Below the pieces are notes generated by a model. The model saw only the letters and a program-made list of their open reading frames with translations. It was not told the DNA's origin and ran no database searches. A DNA stretch of 60,629 bases from an uncultured Clostridia bacterium (GTDB lineage Bacteria > Bacillota > Clostridia > TANB77 > UBA1234): the NCBI GenBank assembly GCA_947588905.1, contig CANQBB010000003.1:1-60629 (forward strand). The letters are read 5' to 3'. Each line of letters opens with the position of its first letter. Position 1 is the stretch's first letter. Shown in pieces: positions 39,007-46,703 of this stretch. A program made the translations under genes and the position numbers.

Positions 39007-40434
39007 TTGAATACAGATAATGAAGAAAAAAAAGATGAAGTAATTGAAGAAAATGTTTCAAACGAAGAAACTAATAATGTAGAAGAAAATAATGAAGTTG
39101 TTGAAAACACTTCAAATAATGAACATTTGAATAATCAAAATGATTCAAATGTTTCAGAAACAAATAATCAAGAACCAAAAGGTAATGGTTGGACAGTTAT
39201 TTTAAGTTTGATAATAATTATAGTTGCTATAGGAATAATAGTGTATGGAATTGTAACATTTTTTGGAAAGAGTAATGTATCTAAAGGAAAAAAATTTATG
39301 GAATTAGCTACATCAAATCAAAAAATTCTTGAGCTAATAGATACAGAAAAAATGGAAAATGGACAAACAAATGTAAAAGCAACTGTTGATATTGATAATA
39401 TTGTAACTCAAATGGGAAAAGAAGCAACTGGAGTAGGAACCTTGAGCTTAGACAATGTACAAATTGTAGATGACAAAAACTATTCTTCTTCTACGAAAAT
39501 ATCTTTAGGAAATATAAAAGCAGAACTTCAACTTGTTAAAACAGGAGATATATTTGGAGTTAATATACCAGAAATAACAGATAAATTTATTGGAATAGAT
39601 ACAAATGATTTAGATGGATTGGTTAATAATTTAAGAAGATTAGGAATATTAACAAATACCCAAGACAATGATTATACAGAAGAACAATCAAAAGAACTTA
39701 TGGAAATATTTAAGAAATATTATGAAGTTGCTGTTGAGAATATGGGAGAATTTATAGTAGAGAATTCTAATGTTAGTATAAGTTTACATGGAAAAACAGA
39801 TACTGCTAATGAATATGTATTTACCATAAACGGAGAAGCATATTTAAAAATTGGTGTTGCTGTTGAAAAGGAACTTGTAAAAAACAAAAGCGATTTAGAA
39901 AAATTAGCTGAACTTGGACTAATTGAAAATGCTGATGAAACTTTAGAAAAAATTGAAAATGATATAGAAAAAAATGAAGAAGATATAAAAAATGGAGCAT
40001 ACAATAATGAGTCTTTCGCAACTATTACATTAAAACTATATGAAAAGAAAGGCAAAAATATTGCAACAGTTATTGAAGCTAATGGAGCTAGACTTGGATT
40101 ATATGTTTTTGAAACATCAAAAGATAATTATGAAATTGATTTTGAAAGTATAAATGGAGGTTCAAATATTATAGTATATTGGAATACAGAAAAGGCGGAA
40201 AACAATATAAGTAATGGTACAGTTGGAATTGTATATAATGACAAAGACATTAAAGTAACAGATATTACTTGTGAAAAATTAGATCAAGTTGAAGATGAGT
40301 TAATAACTATATCTGGAGACAATGTTTTATTACTTAACTCTGCAACAGAAGAAGATTTAGATAACTTTTCTAGTGCAGTATCAACAAATCTTCAAAAATA
40401 TTTTATGAAATTACTTTTGGGTGTACAAGAGTAA
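39007..40434 (+). CDS. Membrane-anchored acidic extracellular protein, paralogue of 36717
   Basis: Shared blocks SKG.+FM.LAT..QK, ELQ..KTGDI.G.NIPEI..KFI, KLYEK.GKNIATV, LLLN.AT.ED. Confidence 0.7.
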   Translation: MNTDNEEKKDEVIEENVSNEETNNVEENNEVVENTSNNEHLNNQNDSNVSETNNQEPKGNGWTVILSLIIIIVAIGIIVYGIVTFFGKSNVSKGKKFMELATSNQKILELIDTEKMENGQTNVKATVDIDNIVTQMGKEATGVGTLSLDNVQIVDDKNYSSSTKISLGNIKAELQLVKTGDIFGVNIPEITDKFIGIDTNDLDGLVNNLRRLGILTNTQDNDYTEEQSKELMEIFKKYYEVAVENMGEFIVENSNVSISLHGKTDTANEYVFTINGEAYLKIGVAVEKELVKNKSDLEKLAELGLIENADETLEKIENDIEKNEEDIKNGAYNNESFATITLKLYEKKGKNIATVIEANGARLGLYVFETSKDNYEIDFESINGGSNIIVYWNTEKAENNISNGTVGIVYNDKDIKVTDITCEKLDQVEDELITISGDNVLLLNSATEEDLDNFSSAVSTNLQKYFMKLLLGVQE

Positions 40435-40902: not shown

Positions 40903-42540
<1,638 letters not shown>

Positions 42541-42561
42541 TATAAAAAAGTAAAATTTATA

Positions 42562-42599
42562 AAGGGGCTGTAAAAAACTCAATTTACAGCCTCTTTTTT
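42562..42599 (+). terminator. Intrinsic terminator after groEL
   Basis: ggggctgtaaa / tttacagcctc stem plus T run. Confidence 0.75.
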
Positions 42600-42788
42600 G
42601 TCAAACTAATAGTAAATTGTAAGATGATAATATAAGGCACAAATATTAGTTAAAAAGATTGACATAATACGTATAAACGTGATATAATCTGCTCAATTAA
42701 ATCGTTATGTAAAAATCTTTTTATAAAGGATTTGGTATAGGATAGTAATTGCCATGTTTTACTAACATTAAAAGGAGGGTGAAACATC

Positions 42789-43478
42789 ATGAAGAAGCGG
42801 ACGATAAACATAATTCTTGAGGTTTTGTGCGTAGTGATTTTGATTGAGGTTTTTGCATTGTGCTTTGTATATAAGCCCATTAGGAAGATTATAATGGATT
42901 GTTTTGAAAAGGTTCGTGAAAAATGTGAAGAATGCTATGAAGCAGTTTATGAAGTCTGTGAAAATGCTATTTATAAGTTGCTCAATAAGAGTGAGAATGA
43001 TTCATACATAACTAATGAAGGTATTAAAATACAAGATATTGGTAACTTTGAGATAGGCAAAATAATTAACTTTACTGTACCATATGGAAGCACTGTTGGA
43101 AAACTGGAAATAGATGATAATATGACAATTGAAGCTATTGGTATAGAGAGTGATAAAACAACTATTACAATTTTTCTTGAAAATCTTGGTACAGATGCTG
43201 ATATTGATGCTGCTAAAAAATCTAGAGATGCTGTTGTAGAATCTTTGAAAGCAACATCAGATATAAAATTAGTTGGCACTGCGACTGTTGGCGATAGAAT
43301 AGCAACAGCTAATTATACATATAATGATAGCTATAATATAACAGTAGCAGTAATTGGGCTTGGAGATAAGACTATTTTGATATGCAACAAATACCAGCTT
43401 GAGAATCAGTTTGAAGCTGAAAATTGTTTTGTAGCACTTTTGGGAGAAATAGAAGGCTTATTGAAAGAAGGGCAGTAA
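42789..43478 (+). CDS. Hypothetical membrane-anchored protein
   Basis: RBS aggaggg, N-terminal TM helix, 229 aa; in-frame CGG at codon 4. Confidence 0.65.
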   Translation: MKKRTINIILEVLCVVILIEVFALCFVYKPIRKIIMDCFEKVREKCEECYEAVYEVCENAIYKLLNKSENDSYITNEGIKIQDIGNFEIGKIINFTVPYGSTVGKLEIDDNMTIEAIGIESDKTTITIFLENLGTDADIDAAKKSRDAVVESLKATSDIKLVGTATVGDRIATANYTYNDSYNITVAVIGLGDKTILICNKYQLENQFEAENCFVALLGEIEGLLKEGQ

Positions 43479-43481
43479 ACC

Positions 43482-43826
43482 ATGAATAAAGAAACTTTTT
43501 GTGAGCAATTTATTGCTTTGGCAGAAGAGCATTATCAATTGCTAAAAAAGAAAAATTATTCTAAGCGGGCTAGAGTAAATAAAAAATTACTAGAAATGTT
43601 AAGCTCCATTTCGATATATTTTATAGATATAGAGGAGTTTATAAGAAGTATTATTACCTCAAAAAATGAGTCGGCCATTTTGTGGATTTCAAATTATGCA
43701 CTTTATAATAAATTGTGTCGTCAAGAAATTATAAAAGCACTTGAATATATATACAATAATTCCAATGATTCAATTCATTCTGCTTCTGCTTATACAATTT
43801 TACTAAACAATAAAGTTAATGTTTAA
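43482..43826 (+). CDS. Putative immunity protein (DUF2019-like, tentative)
   Basis: 114-aa helical protein adjacent to the toxin gene; the N.K...L....A.LW pattern recalls DUF2019. Family assignment is from memory. Confidence 0.45.
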   Translation: MNKETFCEQFIALAEEHYQLLKKKNYSKRARVNKKLLEMLSSISIYFIDIEEFIRSIITSKNESAILWISNYALYNKLCRQEIIKALEYIYNNSNDSIHSASAYTILLNNKVNV

Positions 43827-43828
43827 AG

Positions 43829-43855
43829 CTTGGCTTTTTTAAAGCCAAGTTTTTT
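43829..43855 (+). terminator. Intrinsic terminator between putative immunity gene and toxin gene
   Basis: cttggcttt / aaagccaag stem plus T run. Confidence 0.7.
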
Positions 43856-43897
43856 GTTAAAAATTCATAGCAATTAGTTATCATAGGAGGTGGCTAC

Positions 43898-46060
43898 ATG
43901 ACTATGAAGCTCCGGAAGATTTTAACAGTTTTTCTGATTCTTGCAGTAGTGCTTATGAATATGCCTGCAATGGCATTGACAACGTATAGTATTAACACAC
44001 TTTTTGAAACCAACAAAGATAATGTTTCGATATATAGTGAACCGTATAAAGATTCTCAAAAACTTCATACTTTTAATCGGGCTGGTAGCACGGTTTATGT
44101 ATATGAAGGAGTTATAAATGATTATGGAAATTTGTGGTATGCAGTAGATGGAGGATATATAAATTCTAATCATATTGATGAGCATGTACATGTAGCAGCT
44201 GCATGTGCATCAAATACCTCTACAAGATATGAAGTATGTGATGAAAATGGACATAATAAGATATACTATGAGGGTGATTATATATGTAGGTGTGGAGAAT
44301 ATGTAGAAGATGGACAAACAACGGTAGAGTATGAGTTGCATAGTTTTTCTAGAGACGACATATGTACTGTATGCGGATATCAAAAAGAGCATGTTCACGT
44401 AGCAGTGGCATGTGCATCAAATTCATATACAAGCTATGAAGTATGTGATGAATATGGTCATAATAAGATATACTATGAAGGGGATTATATATGCAAATGT
44501 GGAGCATATGTAGAAGATGGACAAACAATAGTAGAATATGAATCACATAGTTTTTCTCAAGATGATATATGTACTGTATGTGGATATCAAAAAGAGCATG
44601 TCCATGTGGCGGCAGCGTGTGCATCAAATTCATCTATAAGATATGAAGTATGCGATGAAAATGGACATAATAAGATATACTATGAGGGCGACTATATATG
44701 CAAATGTGGAGCATATGTAGAAGATGGACAAACAATAGTAGAGTATGAATCACATAGTTTTTCTCAAGATGACATATGTACAGTATGTGGATATCAAAAA
44801 GAGCATGTACACGTGGCAGTGGCATGCGCGTCAAACTCTAGAAAATATTATGAAGATATTAGTTTTGATGGACATACTGTGGTTACTTATGAAGGCGACT
44901 ATATATGCAAATGTGGTGCATTTGTAGAAGAAGGCAAATATGAGAGAACGTTTGAACCGCACTCATATGATGAGAATAATATTTGTACTTCATGTGGATA
45001 TGTAAAAACACATGAACATGTTGCAGTAGCTTGTGCCAGTAATGGTGGAGCATGGGTAAAAGACATAAATGAAAATACACATACTGTAGTTATATATGAA
45101 GGCGATTATATATGTAGTTGTGGGGAATTTGTAAGAAGAGGACTAGAAACAGAAAATATTGAAAATCATTCTTTTTCAAATGATGTTTGCAGTGTATGTG
45201 GATATACAAGAACTCATGTACATACAGGAAGTAGTTGCAGGTATGGCTATGTTGAGTATAAAGACATAACTGCAACAACTCATAGAGTAGTAGGAACTAC
45301 AGGAGAAACATATTGTTCTTGTGGCTATAAAATTTCTGATAGTAGTCCTATAGATGAAGTACAAAAACATAATTTTGAAAACGGAAAATGCATTGAATGT
45401 GGATATGAAAGTAATTTTGGAGATTATGTAGTTTCTTCTTCTGAGCAGGCTGTATTAGGGGACTTTTCTGATGAATCTTCTTTTGGTGGTTTAGTATTAG
45501 AAGTTGTTGTAGGAGAAATACCAATTGTTGGTACAATAGCTGATATAAGAGATTTTGCTGGAAGTATTATAAATTACAAATCTCCAGCAGATGTAGCATT
45601 AAATGCTATTGGACTAATTCCTCTTGTTGGAGCATTAAAATTCTCTGATGAAGTATATGATGTTACTAAAAATTCAGATGAAATAATAGATGTTGTAGAC
45701 ACTACTACAGATGGTTTTCGGTATGTAGATAAAGCTTCTGACCAGATTGAAGAATTTTCAAGTTATGGAAAGTTTAAAAATGAATTTGGTAGAGCTGGAG
45801 ACAATATGCAATGGCATCATATTGTCGAACAATCTCAGATTTCAAAAAGTGGTTTTAGTTCTAGTCAAATCAATAGTACTTATAATATTATTTCATTAGA
45901 TGTTGAAACGCATCGGAAAGTTACAGCATTTTATAATAGTAAAATTGAAGGTTTGAATATAACTGTTAGAGATTGGTTGGCAGCTCAAAACATGTCTTAT
46001 GAAGAACAATATAATTATGGACTAAAAGTTTTGGAAAGGTTTGGAGTAAAAGTGAGATAA
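43898..46060 (+). CDS. Secreted polymorphic-toxin-like protein: signal peptide, SH3b-like domain, six Cys/His repeats, PT-TG-like region, C-terminal HNH-type nuclease
   Basis: Signal peptide; NLWYAVDGGYI; repeats; GEIPIVGTIADIRD...IGLIPLVGALK; QWHHIVEQ...N..N....H.KV..FY. Confidence 0.72.
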   Translation: MTMKLRKILTVFLILAVVLMNMPAMALTTYSINTLFETNKDNVSIYSEPYKDSQKLHTFNRAGSTVYVYEGVINDYGNLWYAVDGGYINSNHIDEHVHVAAACASNTSTRYEVCDENGHNKIYYEGDYICRCGEYVEDGQTTVEYELHSFSRDDICTVCGYQKEHVHVAVACASNSYTSYEVCDEYGHNKIYYEGDYICKCGAYVEDGQTIVEYESHSFSQDDICTVCGYQKEHVHVAAACASNSSIRYEVCDENGHNKIYYEGDYICKCGAYVEDGQTIVEYESHSFSQDDICTVCGYQKEHVHVAVACASNSRKYYEDISFDGHTVVTYEGDYICKCGAFVEEGKYERTFEPHSYDENNICTSCGYVKTHEHVAVACASNGGAWVKDINENTHTVVIYEGDYICSCGEFVRRGLETENIENHSFSNDVCSVCGYTRTHVHTGSSCRYGYVEYKDITATTHRVVGTTGETYCSCGYKISDSSPIDEVQKHNFENGKCIECGYESNFGDYVVSSSEQAVLGDFSDESSFGGLVLEVVVGEIPIVGTIADIRDFAGSIINYKSPADVALNAIGLIPLVGALKFSDEVYDVTKNSDEIIDVVDTTTDGFRYVDKASDQIEEFSSYGKFKNEFGRAGDNMQWHHIVEQSQISKSGFSSSQINSTYNIISLDVETHRKVTAFYNSKIEGLNITVRDWLAAQNMSYEEQYNYGLKVLERFGVKVR
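44183..45410 (+). repeat. Six tandem 207-nt (69-aa) intragenic repeats
   Basis: Units start at 44183, 44390, 44597, 44804, 45011 and 45215. The first three are near-identical and the later ones diverge. Confidence 0.92.
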
Positions 46061-46066
46061 GAAAAA

Positions 46067-46146
46067 GCGCACATTGAGGATATTCCTTAATGTGCGCATT
46101 CTTTTTCGCACATTAAGGGGCATCCCTAATGTACGCCTAATGTGCA
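46067..46146. repeat. Tandem palindromic (REP-like) units downstream of the toxin gene
   Basis: gcgcacattgagga-tat-tccttaatgtgcgc (46067-46097), cgcacattaagggg-cat-ccctaatgtacgc (46107-46136), and a partial ctaatgtgca. Confidence 0.7.
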
Positions 46147-46208
46147 TATTGACTTTTAGTTTGTTTATTGATATATTATTAACGTATAAGCATAGATTGG
46201 AGGAGTTT

Positions 46209-46703
46209 ATGGTTTTATTTCCAGATATGTATTATAAAAACGTTCAAAGTATTAGTTTACAAGACTTAAAAGAACATGAAATTAAAGGGTTAATATTAGA
46301 TGTAGATAATACTTTAATAGATTATAAAAAAGTAGTTAGCAAGGAAGTAATTGATTGGGTGGAAAGTGTTAAGAATGCTGGCTATAAAGTATGCATTTTG
46401 TCAAATTCTAATAATAAAGATAAAATATCAAAAGTTGCTAACGTACTTGGAATTGATTATTATATGCTGGCGAAAAAACCTTTTAAAAGTGGATTTAAAA
46501 AAGTACAAAAGATATTTGATTTACCAGCGAAAAATATAGCAGCTATTGGAGATCAAGTGTTTACTGATGTTTTAGGTGCTAATAGAATGAATATGATTTC
46601 TATTTATGTAGAACCAATAAACAAAAAAGAATATTGGTATACAAAATGGAAAAGACCAATTGAATCTTTTATATTAAAAAAGAGACCAAATGTAACAAAT
46701 TAA
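46209..46703 (+). CDS. yqeG: YqeG-family HAD IIIA phosphatase
   Basis: LILDVDNTL, ILSN, AKKP, IGDQVFTDVLGANR. The ATG at 46209 follows ggagg; the track's 46074 start runs through the repeat. Confidence 0.88.
   Translation: MVLFPDMYYKNVQSISLQDLKEHEIKGLILDVDNTLIDYKKVVSKEVIDWVESVKNAGYKVCILSNSNNKDKISKVANVLGIDYYMLAKKPFKSGFKKVQKIFDLPAKNIAAIGDQVFTDVLGANRMNMISIYVEPINKKEYWYTKWKRPIESFILKKRPNVTN

Follow-up and report, generated by a model that had tools for sequence, protein, structure and literature searches.

A probable three-gene antibacterial toxin operon with a Cys/His-repeat stalk in an uncultured gut Clostridia bacterium

In crowded communities such as that of the gut, polymorphic toxins influence how bacteria compete, and to our knowledge nearly all of the delivery that is understood so far in Gram-positive bacteria relies on the type VII secretion system (LXG/WXG) or on RHS/WapA-type proteins. 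The subject here is a secreted protein of 720 amino acids, encoded at 43898..46060 in a 60,629-nucleotide stretch of DNA (the window; contig CANQBB010000003.1 of GenBank assembly GCA_947588905.1) from an uncultured Clostridia bacterium, together with the two genes directly ahead of it. Together the three genes probably constitute a self-contained antibacterial toxin operon, in which a protein exported by the Sec pathway would carry a likely HNH-like nuclease at its C-terminus, behind a stalk of Cys/His repeats, and would be accompanied by a probable immunity protein and a membrane-anchored partner. Sequencing reads that match the window almost exactly come from rabbit-gut and other gut metagenomes. 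An earlier, sequence-only reading of the third gene had proposed a Sec-exported HNH-type toxin on a metal-ligand-rich stalk, and this core idea holds, whilst that reading had overlooked the operon from promoter to terminator, with a probable immunity gene ahead of the toxin gene and a membrane protein specific to the stalk.

The proposed operon, its toxin tip and the probable immunity gene

The cassette, all of which lies on the forward strand, starts from a predicted sigma-70-type promoter (42659..42688; TTGACA, an 18-nucleotide spacer with TG, and TATAAT) that agrees with the consensus at 12 of 12 positions and is the only perfect promoter match in the region scanned, 42400-46400. It ends in an intrinsic terminator (46067..46107), a 14-bp stem with 7 G-C pairs followed by a run of T, which is the sole terminator-like site in the same region. 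Between these signals lie gene 1 (42789..43478), which encodes a membrane-anchored protein of 229 amino acids and has an AGGAGG ribosome-binding site ahead of its ATG at 42789, gene 2 (43482..43826), which encodes the probable immunity protein of 114 amino acids, and gene 3, the toxin gene, which opens with ATG and has a GGAGG ribosome-binding site 7 nucleotides 5' of it. A 13-bp hairpin with a U-rich tail (43825..43853) separates the immunity stop codon from the toxin start, with a folding energy of -14.7 kcal/mol and a z-score of -3.4, none of 200 shuffled sequences folding as well. It is possible that the hairpin acts as a partial terminator or attenuator and, with a weak promoter-like site that follows it at 43857-43884, it could set the level of the toxin transcript below that of the immunity transcript.

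The same three genes are present in the same context as in the window (groESL...HAD) at locus L003 and in another context (rplM/rpsI...ArsC) at loci L001 and L008, thus the cassette is kept in two genomic contexts and behaves as a movable unit. The latter two loci have an ArsC-like gene and an immunity-type SUKH (SMI1_KNR4) gene 1.5-2.5 kb 3' of the cassette (L001 10027-10893; L008 9189-10049), neither of which is found in the window or in L003. These SUKH genes were considered as immunity genes and rejected, both for their absence from those two places and because they do not adjoin the cassette.

The toxin tip is the C-terminal domain of about 115 amino acids (607-720; 45716..46057), with the motif WHHIVEQ at residues 639-645 and its last histidine at 672. 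When linker and tip are modelled together with AlphaFold2, the tip (residues ~607-720) has a predicted local distance difference test score (pLDDT) of 82-93, and the model places a strand at 637-641 (ending in WHH), two short helices, a second strand at 664-668 (NIISL) and a helix at 669-682 that starts DVETHRK and includes H672. As modelled, this is the beta-beta-alpha order of His-Me finger nucleases, with HH, N and H in the canonical places. In tip numbering, none of 60 relatives departs from H37, H38, Q42 or N60, and H69 is conserved in about 90%, with Asn at the H69 position in protein P0097; an exchange of His for Asn is the usual variation between HNH and HNN enzymes. The residues proposed for the active site are H640 as metal ligand and H641 as general base, with N663 and H672, and the tip is likely to be an HNH-like nuclease.

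Weak matches to Pfam families among the 60 relatives are most often to DUF2380 (27 of 60, best E 4.3e-5), followed by HNH_2 (15 of 60, best E 0.0027) and AHH (a single relative). The cut-off of DUF2380 (PF09533) is 26.3 bits, with the tip of the window scoring 12 bits (E 0.14) and the best relative, P0107, 25.2 bits, which would make the window tip a sister family or a borderline case of DUF2380 and not a member.

The tip is far more widespread than the protein that carries it here. An exhaustive HMMER search gave 1,956 cluster representatives at E<=1e-3, and among the matches listed the tip is always at the extreme C-terminus, in proteins of 84-2,394 amino acids. Organisms with the tip include Clostridia, Myxococcota, Spirochaetes, Bacteroidales, Nitrospira, Saccharibacteria and Ralstonia. 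The carriers sampled have RHS repeats, SpvB with TcdB_midN, PT-HINT, FG-GAP or dockerin domains, whilst those of Myxococcota have lipoprotein leaders like the SitA toxins. This C-terminal place behind unrelated scaffolds is the signature of a polymorphic-toxin cassette. Matches on plasmids of Ralstonia and Priestia are without annotation. On the megaplasmid of Ralstonia pseudosolanacearum GMI1000 (NC_003296, ~100.0-100.6 kb; L094 4761-5339) a LHHIVEQ variant stands right after an RHS DPxGL junction with a HEAT-like open reading frame (ORF) 3' of it, and the gene table of the plasmid collection lists no feature there. In another locus (L010 1853-4821, also L011) a tip protein of 404 amino acids is followed by two DUF2019-like paralogues, an orphan tip of 120 amino acids (P0081) and another paralogue, and such an array of spare tip and immunity modules is typical of conflict loci.

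The product of gene 2 is probably a cytoplasmic, helical and divergent DUF2019/HEAT-like protein, with homologues in the other cassettes at 39-49% identity. Elsewhere, the ORF that overlaps or abuts the stop codon of the tip encodes a helical protein of 110-160 amino acids, and a DUF2019-like ORF is directly 3' of the tip ORF in 75 of 92 cases, the 92 tip ORFs coming from 80 GTDB loci and a number of further loci. Half of this linked downstream family (20 of 40) match Pfam DUF2019 (PF09450; best E 1.2e-10) and 11 match HEAT_2. The 114-amino-acid protein of the window itself has no Pfam match; aligned to the downstream family with hhalign it gives a probability of 90% and an E-value of 1.6e-6 over 101 columns, and a hidden Markov model (HMM) of three cassette proteins matches the downstream ORF of locus L022 at 2.9e-11 and 11 other such downstream ORFs. 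The immunity family therefore follows the tip across phyla, and it is because this family adjoins the tip in those 75 of 92 other cases that gene 2 is the likely immunity gene of the cassette.

What differs is the order of the genes. A homologue of gene 2 is found 5' of the toxin gene in 8 of 9 entries for Cys/His-stalk loci, or about 5 of 6 distinct cassettes, as the entries L015 and L018 repeat L001 and L008. Gene 2 would then be the probable cognate immunity protein in an order that is inverted relative to other systems with this tip. Downstream of the toxin gene the next gene, a HAD phosphatase, is beyond the strong terminator, thus the usual downstream immunity gene is absent. The phosphatase was itself weighed as an immunity gene and rejected, being a housekeeping gene beyond the terminator that forms the same flank in L003.

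The stalk and the parts that surround it

Gene 3 encodes, from residue 96 to 505 (44183..45412), a stalk of six Cys/His repeats of about 69 amino acids, starting at residues 96, 165, 234, 303, 372 and 440 with lengths of 69, 69, 69, 69, 68 and 66. Each of the six units holds HxH, C, H, CxC, H and CxxC, and Tandem Repeats Finder returns a 207-nucleotide period in the DNA. Units 1-3 are 87-91% identical to each other in their DNA, which argues that they were duplicated recently, whereas unit 4 is 60-65% identical to them; an extra cysteine at +18 is confined to units 1-3. When 116 units from 15 homologues are aligned, the positions H4, H6, H27, C38, C40, H56, C64 and C67 are 97-100% conserved, whilst C11 is conserved in just 70% and most other positions vary freely. 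This pattern of eight Cys/His positions is far beyond chance. The boundaries of the unit follow from the homologues, in which the number of HxH motifs equals the number of CxxCGY motifs and the first HxH comes directly after the signal peptide, so that a unit spans HxH to CxxCGY.

An AlphaFold2 model of three consecutive units, from an alignment of 27 rows, is all-beta with a pLDDT of 92.3 and a predicted template modelling score (pTM) of 0.50, the latter meaning that the orientation between units is not fixed. Each modelled unit has two beta-hairpins, with a CxCG knuckle between them and a CxxCGY knuckle after, and the knuckles, C38-x-C40-G and C64-xx-C67-G-Y, are invariant at these places between or after the predicted hairpins. 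The four histidines and four cysteines of a unit are the number that two tetrahedral metal sites would need, and the kind of ligands, together with the anaerobic habitat, suggests zinc, most likely as two Zn2+ ions per unit. No zinc-ribbon family or structure matches the repeat in Pfam, NCBIfam or the PDB as searched with Foldseek; against the PDB the repeat model has nothing significant (best E 0.078), and its thematic neighbours are elongated beta rods, the G5-E rods of SasG/Aap and the Bd2133 fibre, at E 0.2-1.5.

Among 5.8 billion proteins searched, roughly a dozen combine this stalk with the linker and tip of the window protein; none of these relatives has a Pfam domain or a name, and they come from metagenome-assembled genomes of uncultured Clostridia/Eubacteriales, with sheep rectum among the samples. 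All of the roughly 15 proteins with the 69-amino-acid stalk end in the same tip, and the full-length homologues have 6-13 repeats, the largest being a protein of 1,214 amino acids with 13 (L014 866-5348). Two others, P0012 and P0013, have 4-5 units and a degenerate linker (GEISDAGLVVEV...) without a tip, and look like decayed or truncated copies. Metagenome contigs were also scanned with a degenerate DNA pattern (H-x-F...CxxCGY...HxH), which returned one more true fragment of the family (L099, which ends inside its sixth unit so that a tip is not visible), a distant lipoprotein family and chance matches, and no new tip on the stalk.

Versions of the ligand pattern (C/HxH...H...CxxC...H.F...CxxCGY) that are either looser or shorter, the shorter ones being about 47 amino acids long, are found in P0018, P0020, P0014, P0016 and P0017. 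These surface proteins are not toxins and have dockerin, cohesin, LRR_5 or choline-binding repeats; a related pattern occurs in a lipoprotein of 821 amino acids (L102 337-2802). The recurrence of the pattern in such distant surface proteins argues that the module is a general extracellular stalk element of anaerobic Firmicutes, and suggests that Cys/His stalk modules form a large family that has yet to be annotated. In P0020 a Pfam RYYR-CCHC module (PF23674) adjoins the Cys/His repeats; it was considered as the identity of the repeat and rejected, as it matches a different, adjacent module. A literature search on DUF2019, RYYR-CCHC and zinc-ribbon stalk toxins found nothing relevant.

The membrane protein encoded by gene 1 belongs with the stalk. 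It has a basic N-terminus, one transmembrane helix and a C-terminal domain of about 160 amino acids which, by the positive-inside rule, is predicted to be outside the cell. Homologues with 28-40% identity are directly 5' in every Cys/His-stalk cassette (the window, L003, L001/L015, L008/L018, L014, L016 and L002), and an HMM of the family matches stalk loci only and none of about 80 other tip loci, so that gene 1 tracks the stalk and not the tip. Such loci provide a natural experiment that separates the components, with the immunity protein following the tip and the accessory protein following the stalk. Gene 1 has no relative in the PDB or Pfam, with SUKH_5 reaching E 0.0011 in only 2 of 5 members of its family, a near-identical pair; it probably helps to export, fold, metal-load or tether the stalk.

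Ahead of the stalk is a predicted Sec-type signal peptide, read from sequence and hydropathy (residues 1-26, 43976 being the first base after it; 43898..43975), with cleavage after AMA and before L. The leader, MTMKLRKILTVFLILAVVLMNMPAMA|L, has a basic MTMKLRK start, a hydrophobic core of 19 amino acids (Kyte-Doolittle up to 2.36) and an A-x-A motif, and the leaders of the homologues are equivalent, ending in A-x-A just ahead of the first HxH. Residues 27-95 (43976..44182) form an SH3b-like segment whose matches to bacterial SH3 families are all sub-threshold (SH3_4 at E 0.029, SH3_3 at 0.1 and SH3b_T at 0.17). No proteins but P0003 and P0015 share the segment; counted over the stalk homologues, 2 of about 15 have it, with P0015 in addition, and a PDB search gave no match to it. 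Pfam and NCBIfam searches with the whole 720-amino-acid protein gave only noise, with no SH3, PT-TG, WHH or zinc-ribbon family.

Between stalk and tip is a pre-toxin linker, delimited by alignments and hydropathy (residues 506-606; 45413..45715), which consists of a GDFSD motif, two moderately hydrophobic segments rich in Gly and Pro (527-550 and 562-584) and then an acidic, variable spacer. The two segments flank an invariant G..D.RD, in which G, D, R and D fall within 8 residues. The strings GEIPIVGTIADIRD (539-552) and GLIPLVGALK (572-581) lie within the linker, its pLDDT is low at 33-49, and a PDB profile search with the alignment of linker and tip gave nothing meaningful. Two proteins join the same linker to other C-termini, P0015, in which the SH3b-like segment and a single degenerate unit come with it, and P0228, which has the linker only, thus it behaves as a pre-toxin joint. 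Its family is tiny, a profile search adding just 13 short proteins.

Much of what the sequence-only reading had made of this scaffold is borne out: the Sec-type leader with its basic start, 19-residue core and A-x-A, the six repeats, which have a 207-nucleotide period in the DNA, their metal-ligand-type residues, given the eight conserved positions and the confident all-beta model of three units, the linker and WHHIVEQ strings, and the absence of LXG, WXG and RHS delivery domains, none of which matched the gene 3 protein. Its SH3b-like segment is weakly backed by the sub-threshold matches to SH3_4, SH3_3 and SH3b_T and is absent from most homologues, and the idea of cell-wall targeting, which had been built on that segment, is not supported. 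An extensible stalk finds no support, and a PT-TG-like linker was likewise not confirmed, there being no PF14449 match behind its position and a loose G..D.RD resemblance.

Two further features of the window lie outside the cassette. An ORF of 475 amino acids upstream of groES (39007-40434) has an Asn/Glu-rich, low-complexity N-terminus and one transmembrane segment, with a larger protein at the matching position in L003. A single tRNA gene (58324-58395) is the sole Rfam match in the window, at 72.1 bits.

Proposed mechanism and its alternatives

If the three genes do form an antibacterial system, the product of gene 3 would be exported through Sec and its leader cleaved. The six all-beta units of 69 amino acids would then serve as a rod-like spacer that presents, at its far end, a nuclease of the HNH (His-Me finger) type of about 115 amino acids. 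The poorly ordered linker, with its two hydrophobic segments, would stand in for the pre-toxin domains of other polymorphic toxins and is the sole candidate element for interaction with the envelope or membrane of a target. The tip would degrade DNA inside a neighbouring cell, whilst the producer would be shielded by the cytoplasmic gene 2 protein, thought to bind and block the tip. The gene 1 protein, membrane-anchored and with a domain predicted to face outwards, accompanies the stalk always and the tip alone never.

A number of results weigh against this scheme. No Pfam family reaches its cut-off on the tip of the window, PDB sequence searches with the tip gave no match, and its model has no significant structural match by Foldseek, either in the PDB (best E 2.4, with SspE-CTD and Cap5 at E ~6) or in the viral models of BFVD (best E 0.24). 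No known machinery for entry into a target cell is recognised in the protein. The cysteines of the stalk, being extracellular, could form disulfides instead of binding zinc. The cassette of L014 has no immunity gene, the membrane-protein gene there abutting the toxin gene, and its immunity gene is either elsewhere in the genome or lost. Lastly, the variation of tips on one scaffold that the sequence-only reading had foreseen was searched for and not found, all of the ~15 homologues with the 69-amino-acid stalk having the same tip and other C-termini occurring only with the linker, in P0015 and P0228.

Some of these points would suit a secreted or surface nuclease for extracellular DNA, used in nutrient scavenging or in the remodelling of biofilm or mucus, with the 114-amino-acid protein an intracellular inhibitor that acts before export, as in NuiA/NucA or barstar/barnase. 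Such an enzyme would be exported by Sec without recognisable cell-entry machinery and would show no tip polymorphism on its scaffold; the inhibitor gene ahead of the enzyme gene is the order expected for protection before export, and the gut habitat is rich in DNA. This is the alternative that survives best, although it is still an unlikely one. The same tip and inhibitor family are overwhelmingly found on scaffolds for interbacterial delivery (RHS, PT-HINT, SpvB/TcdB and SitA-like lipoproteins), spare tip and immunity modules without a carrier are arrayed as is usual in conflict systems, and the linker is pre-toxin-like and recurs with another C-terminus.

A little less probable again is that the tip is a toxin of another kind and not a DNase, that is an RNase, another metal-dependent hydrolase or an inactive HNH-like binding domain, in which case the H-N-H likeness would be superficial or the fold re-purposed. 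The beta-beta-alpha topology of the model, with HH, N and H(N) placed canonically, speaks for a DNase, as do the recurrent weak matches, which among enzymes are only to His-Me finger families, and the nearest family, DUF2380, which includes a member with DNase activity. Set against these, there is no significant match in fold or sequence to a characterised HNH enzyme, and some invariant residues, namely the E and Q of WHHIVEQ and also Q101 (tip numbering), have no place in the classical HNH set. If the tip does prove an ordinary HNH DNase, its enzymology would be unremarkable, and interest shifts to how the toxin enters a cell and to the stalk with its accessory protein.

Highly improbable is an adhesin or structural surface fibre, in which a Cys/His rod would mediate metal-dependent attachment between cells or to a substrate like the G5-E rods of SasG/Aap, with the C-terminal domain an accessory, for although shorter Cys/His modules do occur in non-toxin surface proteins (dockerin, cohesin, LRR_5, choline-binding) and in a lipoprotein, and the weak Foldseek neighbours are elongated rods that include the Zn-dependent SasG/Aap, none of those matches reaches significance (E >= 0.08), the protein itself lacks an anchor to wall or membrane, and selection has conserved both the tip and its immunity partner in the homologues, save that the immunity gene is missing from the L014 cassette.

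The antibacterial operon therefore remains the preferred reading, and from it a wider proposal can be drawn, which we put forward tentatively and would not ourselves bet on. The 69-amino-acid Cys4His4 unit may be an undescribed, zinc-stabilised beta-rod fold and may, with its membrane partner, make up a new Sec-dependent scaffold for the presentation and delivery of antibacterial toxins in strictly anaerobic gut Clostridia, a counterpart of the filaments of RHS, LXG and contact-dependent inhibition (CDI) systems. Such a scaffold may in turn belong to a larger family of Cys/His stalk modules, not annotated so far, that is spread among the surface proteins of clostridia, those of cellulosome type included. 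At the least, the repeat is a candidate for a new extracellular zinc-binding fold with shorter relatives in surface proteins.

Comparison with known systems

The Pfam family nearest to the tip is SitA6/DUF2380 (PF09533), which comprises lipoprotein toxins of Myxococcus and the pMF1.20-pMF1.19 pair of the M. fulvus plasmid pMF1. DUF2380 is the family of the SitA6 toxin (PMC12077181), and in vitro the DUF2380 protein pMF1.20 degrades plasmid DNA, an activity that its partner inhibits (PMC6091211). The tip family matches DUF2380 over the HH...N...H core, at profile positions 94-139 for the window tip and 60-139 in relatives. Both are polymorphic toxins with an adjacent inhibitor, if the reading of the window is right, and Myxococcota carry this exact tip family behind lipoprotein leaders. 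The SitA6 toxins differ in their delivery, for which a diderm host uses a lipoprotein leader and the exchange of outer membrane, in their lack of a Cys/His stalk, and in their immunity partner, which is double_CXXCG (PF09535; PMC12077181) there and DUF2019-like here.

The sequence-only reading had called the tip a WHH/HNH nuclease, of which the HNH-like polymorphic-toxin module stands and the Pfam WHH family does not. Like Tox-WHH (PF14414) and its sisters AHH and LHH (Zhang et al. 2011, 2012), the tip is C-terminal, is a predicted nuclease and has WHH in the first strand of an HNH/EndoVII-type core. However, WHH gave no match at E<=1 to 10 with the window protein, 10 homologues or the 60 tip relatives. 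The signature of Tox-WHH consists of WHH, L, H and HxG, and its immunity partners are SUKH, Imm28 or Imm37 (PMC3482391; PMC3113570). Tox-WHH has two helix histidines, whereas here WHH is followed by IVEQ, N663 is an invariant Asn, a single helix histidine (H672) is conserved and there is no HxG, and the partner is DUF2019/HEAT-like.

The linker has a loose resemblance to PT-TG (PF14449) of LXG/WXG and other Gram-positive toxins, as described in PMC13483458. As with PT-TG, the linker of this Firmicute protein comes directly before a probable nuclease tip and is a region to which AlphaFold gives low confidence, helical or poorly ordered, and its G..D.RD may be an equivalent of the short PT-TG loop, in which Gly, Asp and Arg are conserved. 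The linker differs in having no TG motif in register and in the very small size of its family, and PF14449 gave no match, either to the full-length protein (E<=1) or to any of 10 homologues (E<=10). As for the stalk, it would share with the G5-E rods of SasG/Aap, which are Zn-dependent staphylococcal fibres, small all-beta units in tandem, an elongated extracellular rod and the involvement of a metal. The Foldseek E-values to these are 0.5-1.5 with template modelling scores <0.2, and G5-E is without the Cys/His set, its zinc bridging molecules and not stabilising units.

In its overall plan the cassette resembles the Sec-dependent polymorphic toxins, such as MafB of Neisseria and the Sec/T2SS class of Zhang et al. 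2012, which also have a signal peptide, a conserved, lineage-restricted region that is N-terminal or central, a C-terminal toxin, an adjacent immunity gene and a conserved accessory gene. It differs from these in a tandem Cys4His4 beta scaffold that is assigned to no family, an immunity gene that is upstream, a tip that is non-polymorphic in the homologues sampled, and an unrelated, single-pass accessory protein. Of the features by which polymorphic toxins are recognised (Zhang et al. 2012), different tips on close homologues of the scaffold are the one that was not seen, whilst the trafficking signal, the central repeats, the C-terminal toxin domain, the sharing of the tip by unrelated scaffolds and an adjacent gene for a putative immunity protein all are.

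The principle of the toxin is thus known and nothing here is categorically new, whilst the stalk, the membrane helper and the order of the genes are not known to have been described before, and four parts, the stalk repeat, the linker, the tip family and the membrane partner, are unannotated. In this cassette a tip of nuclease type that is widespread is joined to a Sec-exported scaffold that is rare, neither of them annotated in Pfam, and the WHHIVEQ tip with its DUF2019-like protein is a defined toxin-immunity pair, across many phyla, that could be given a name.

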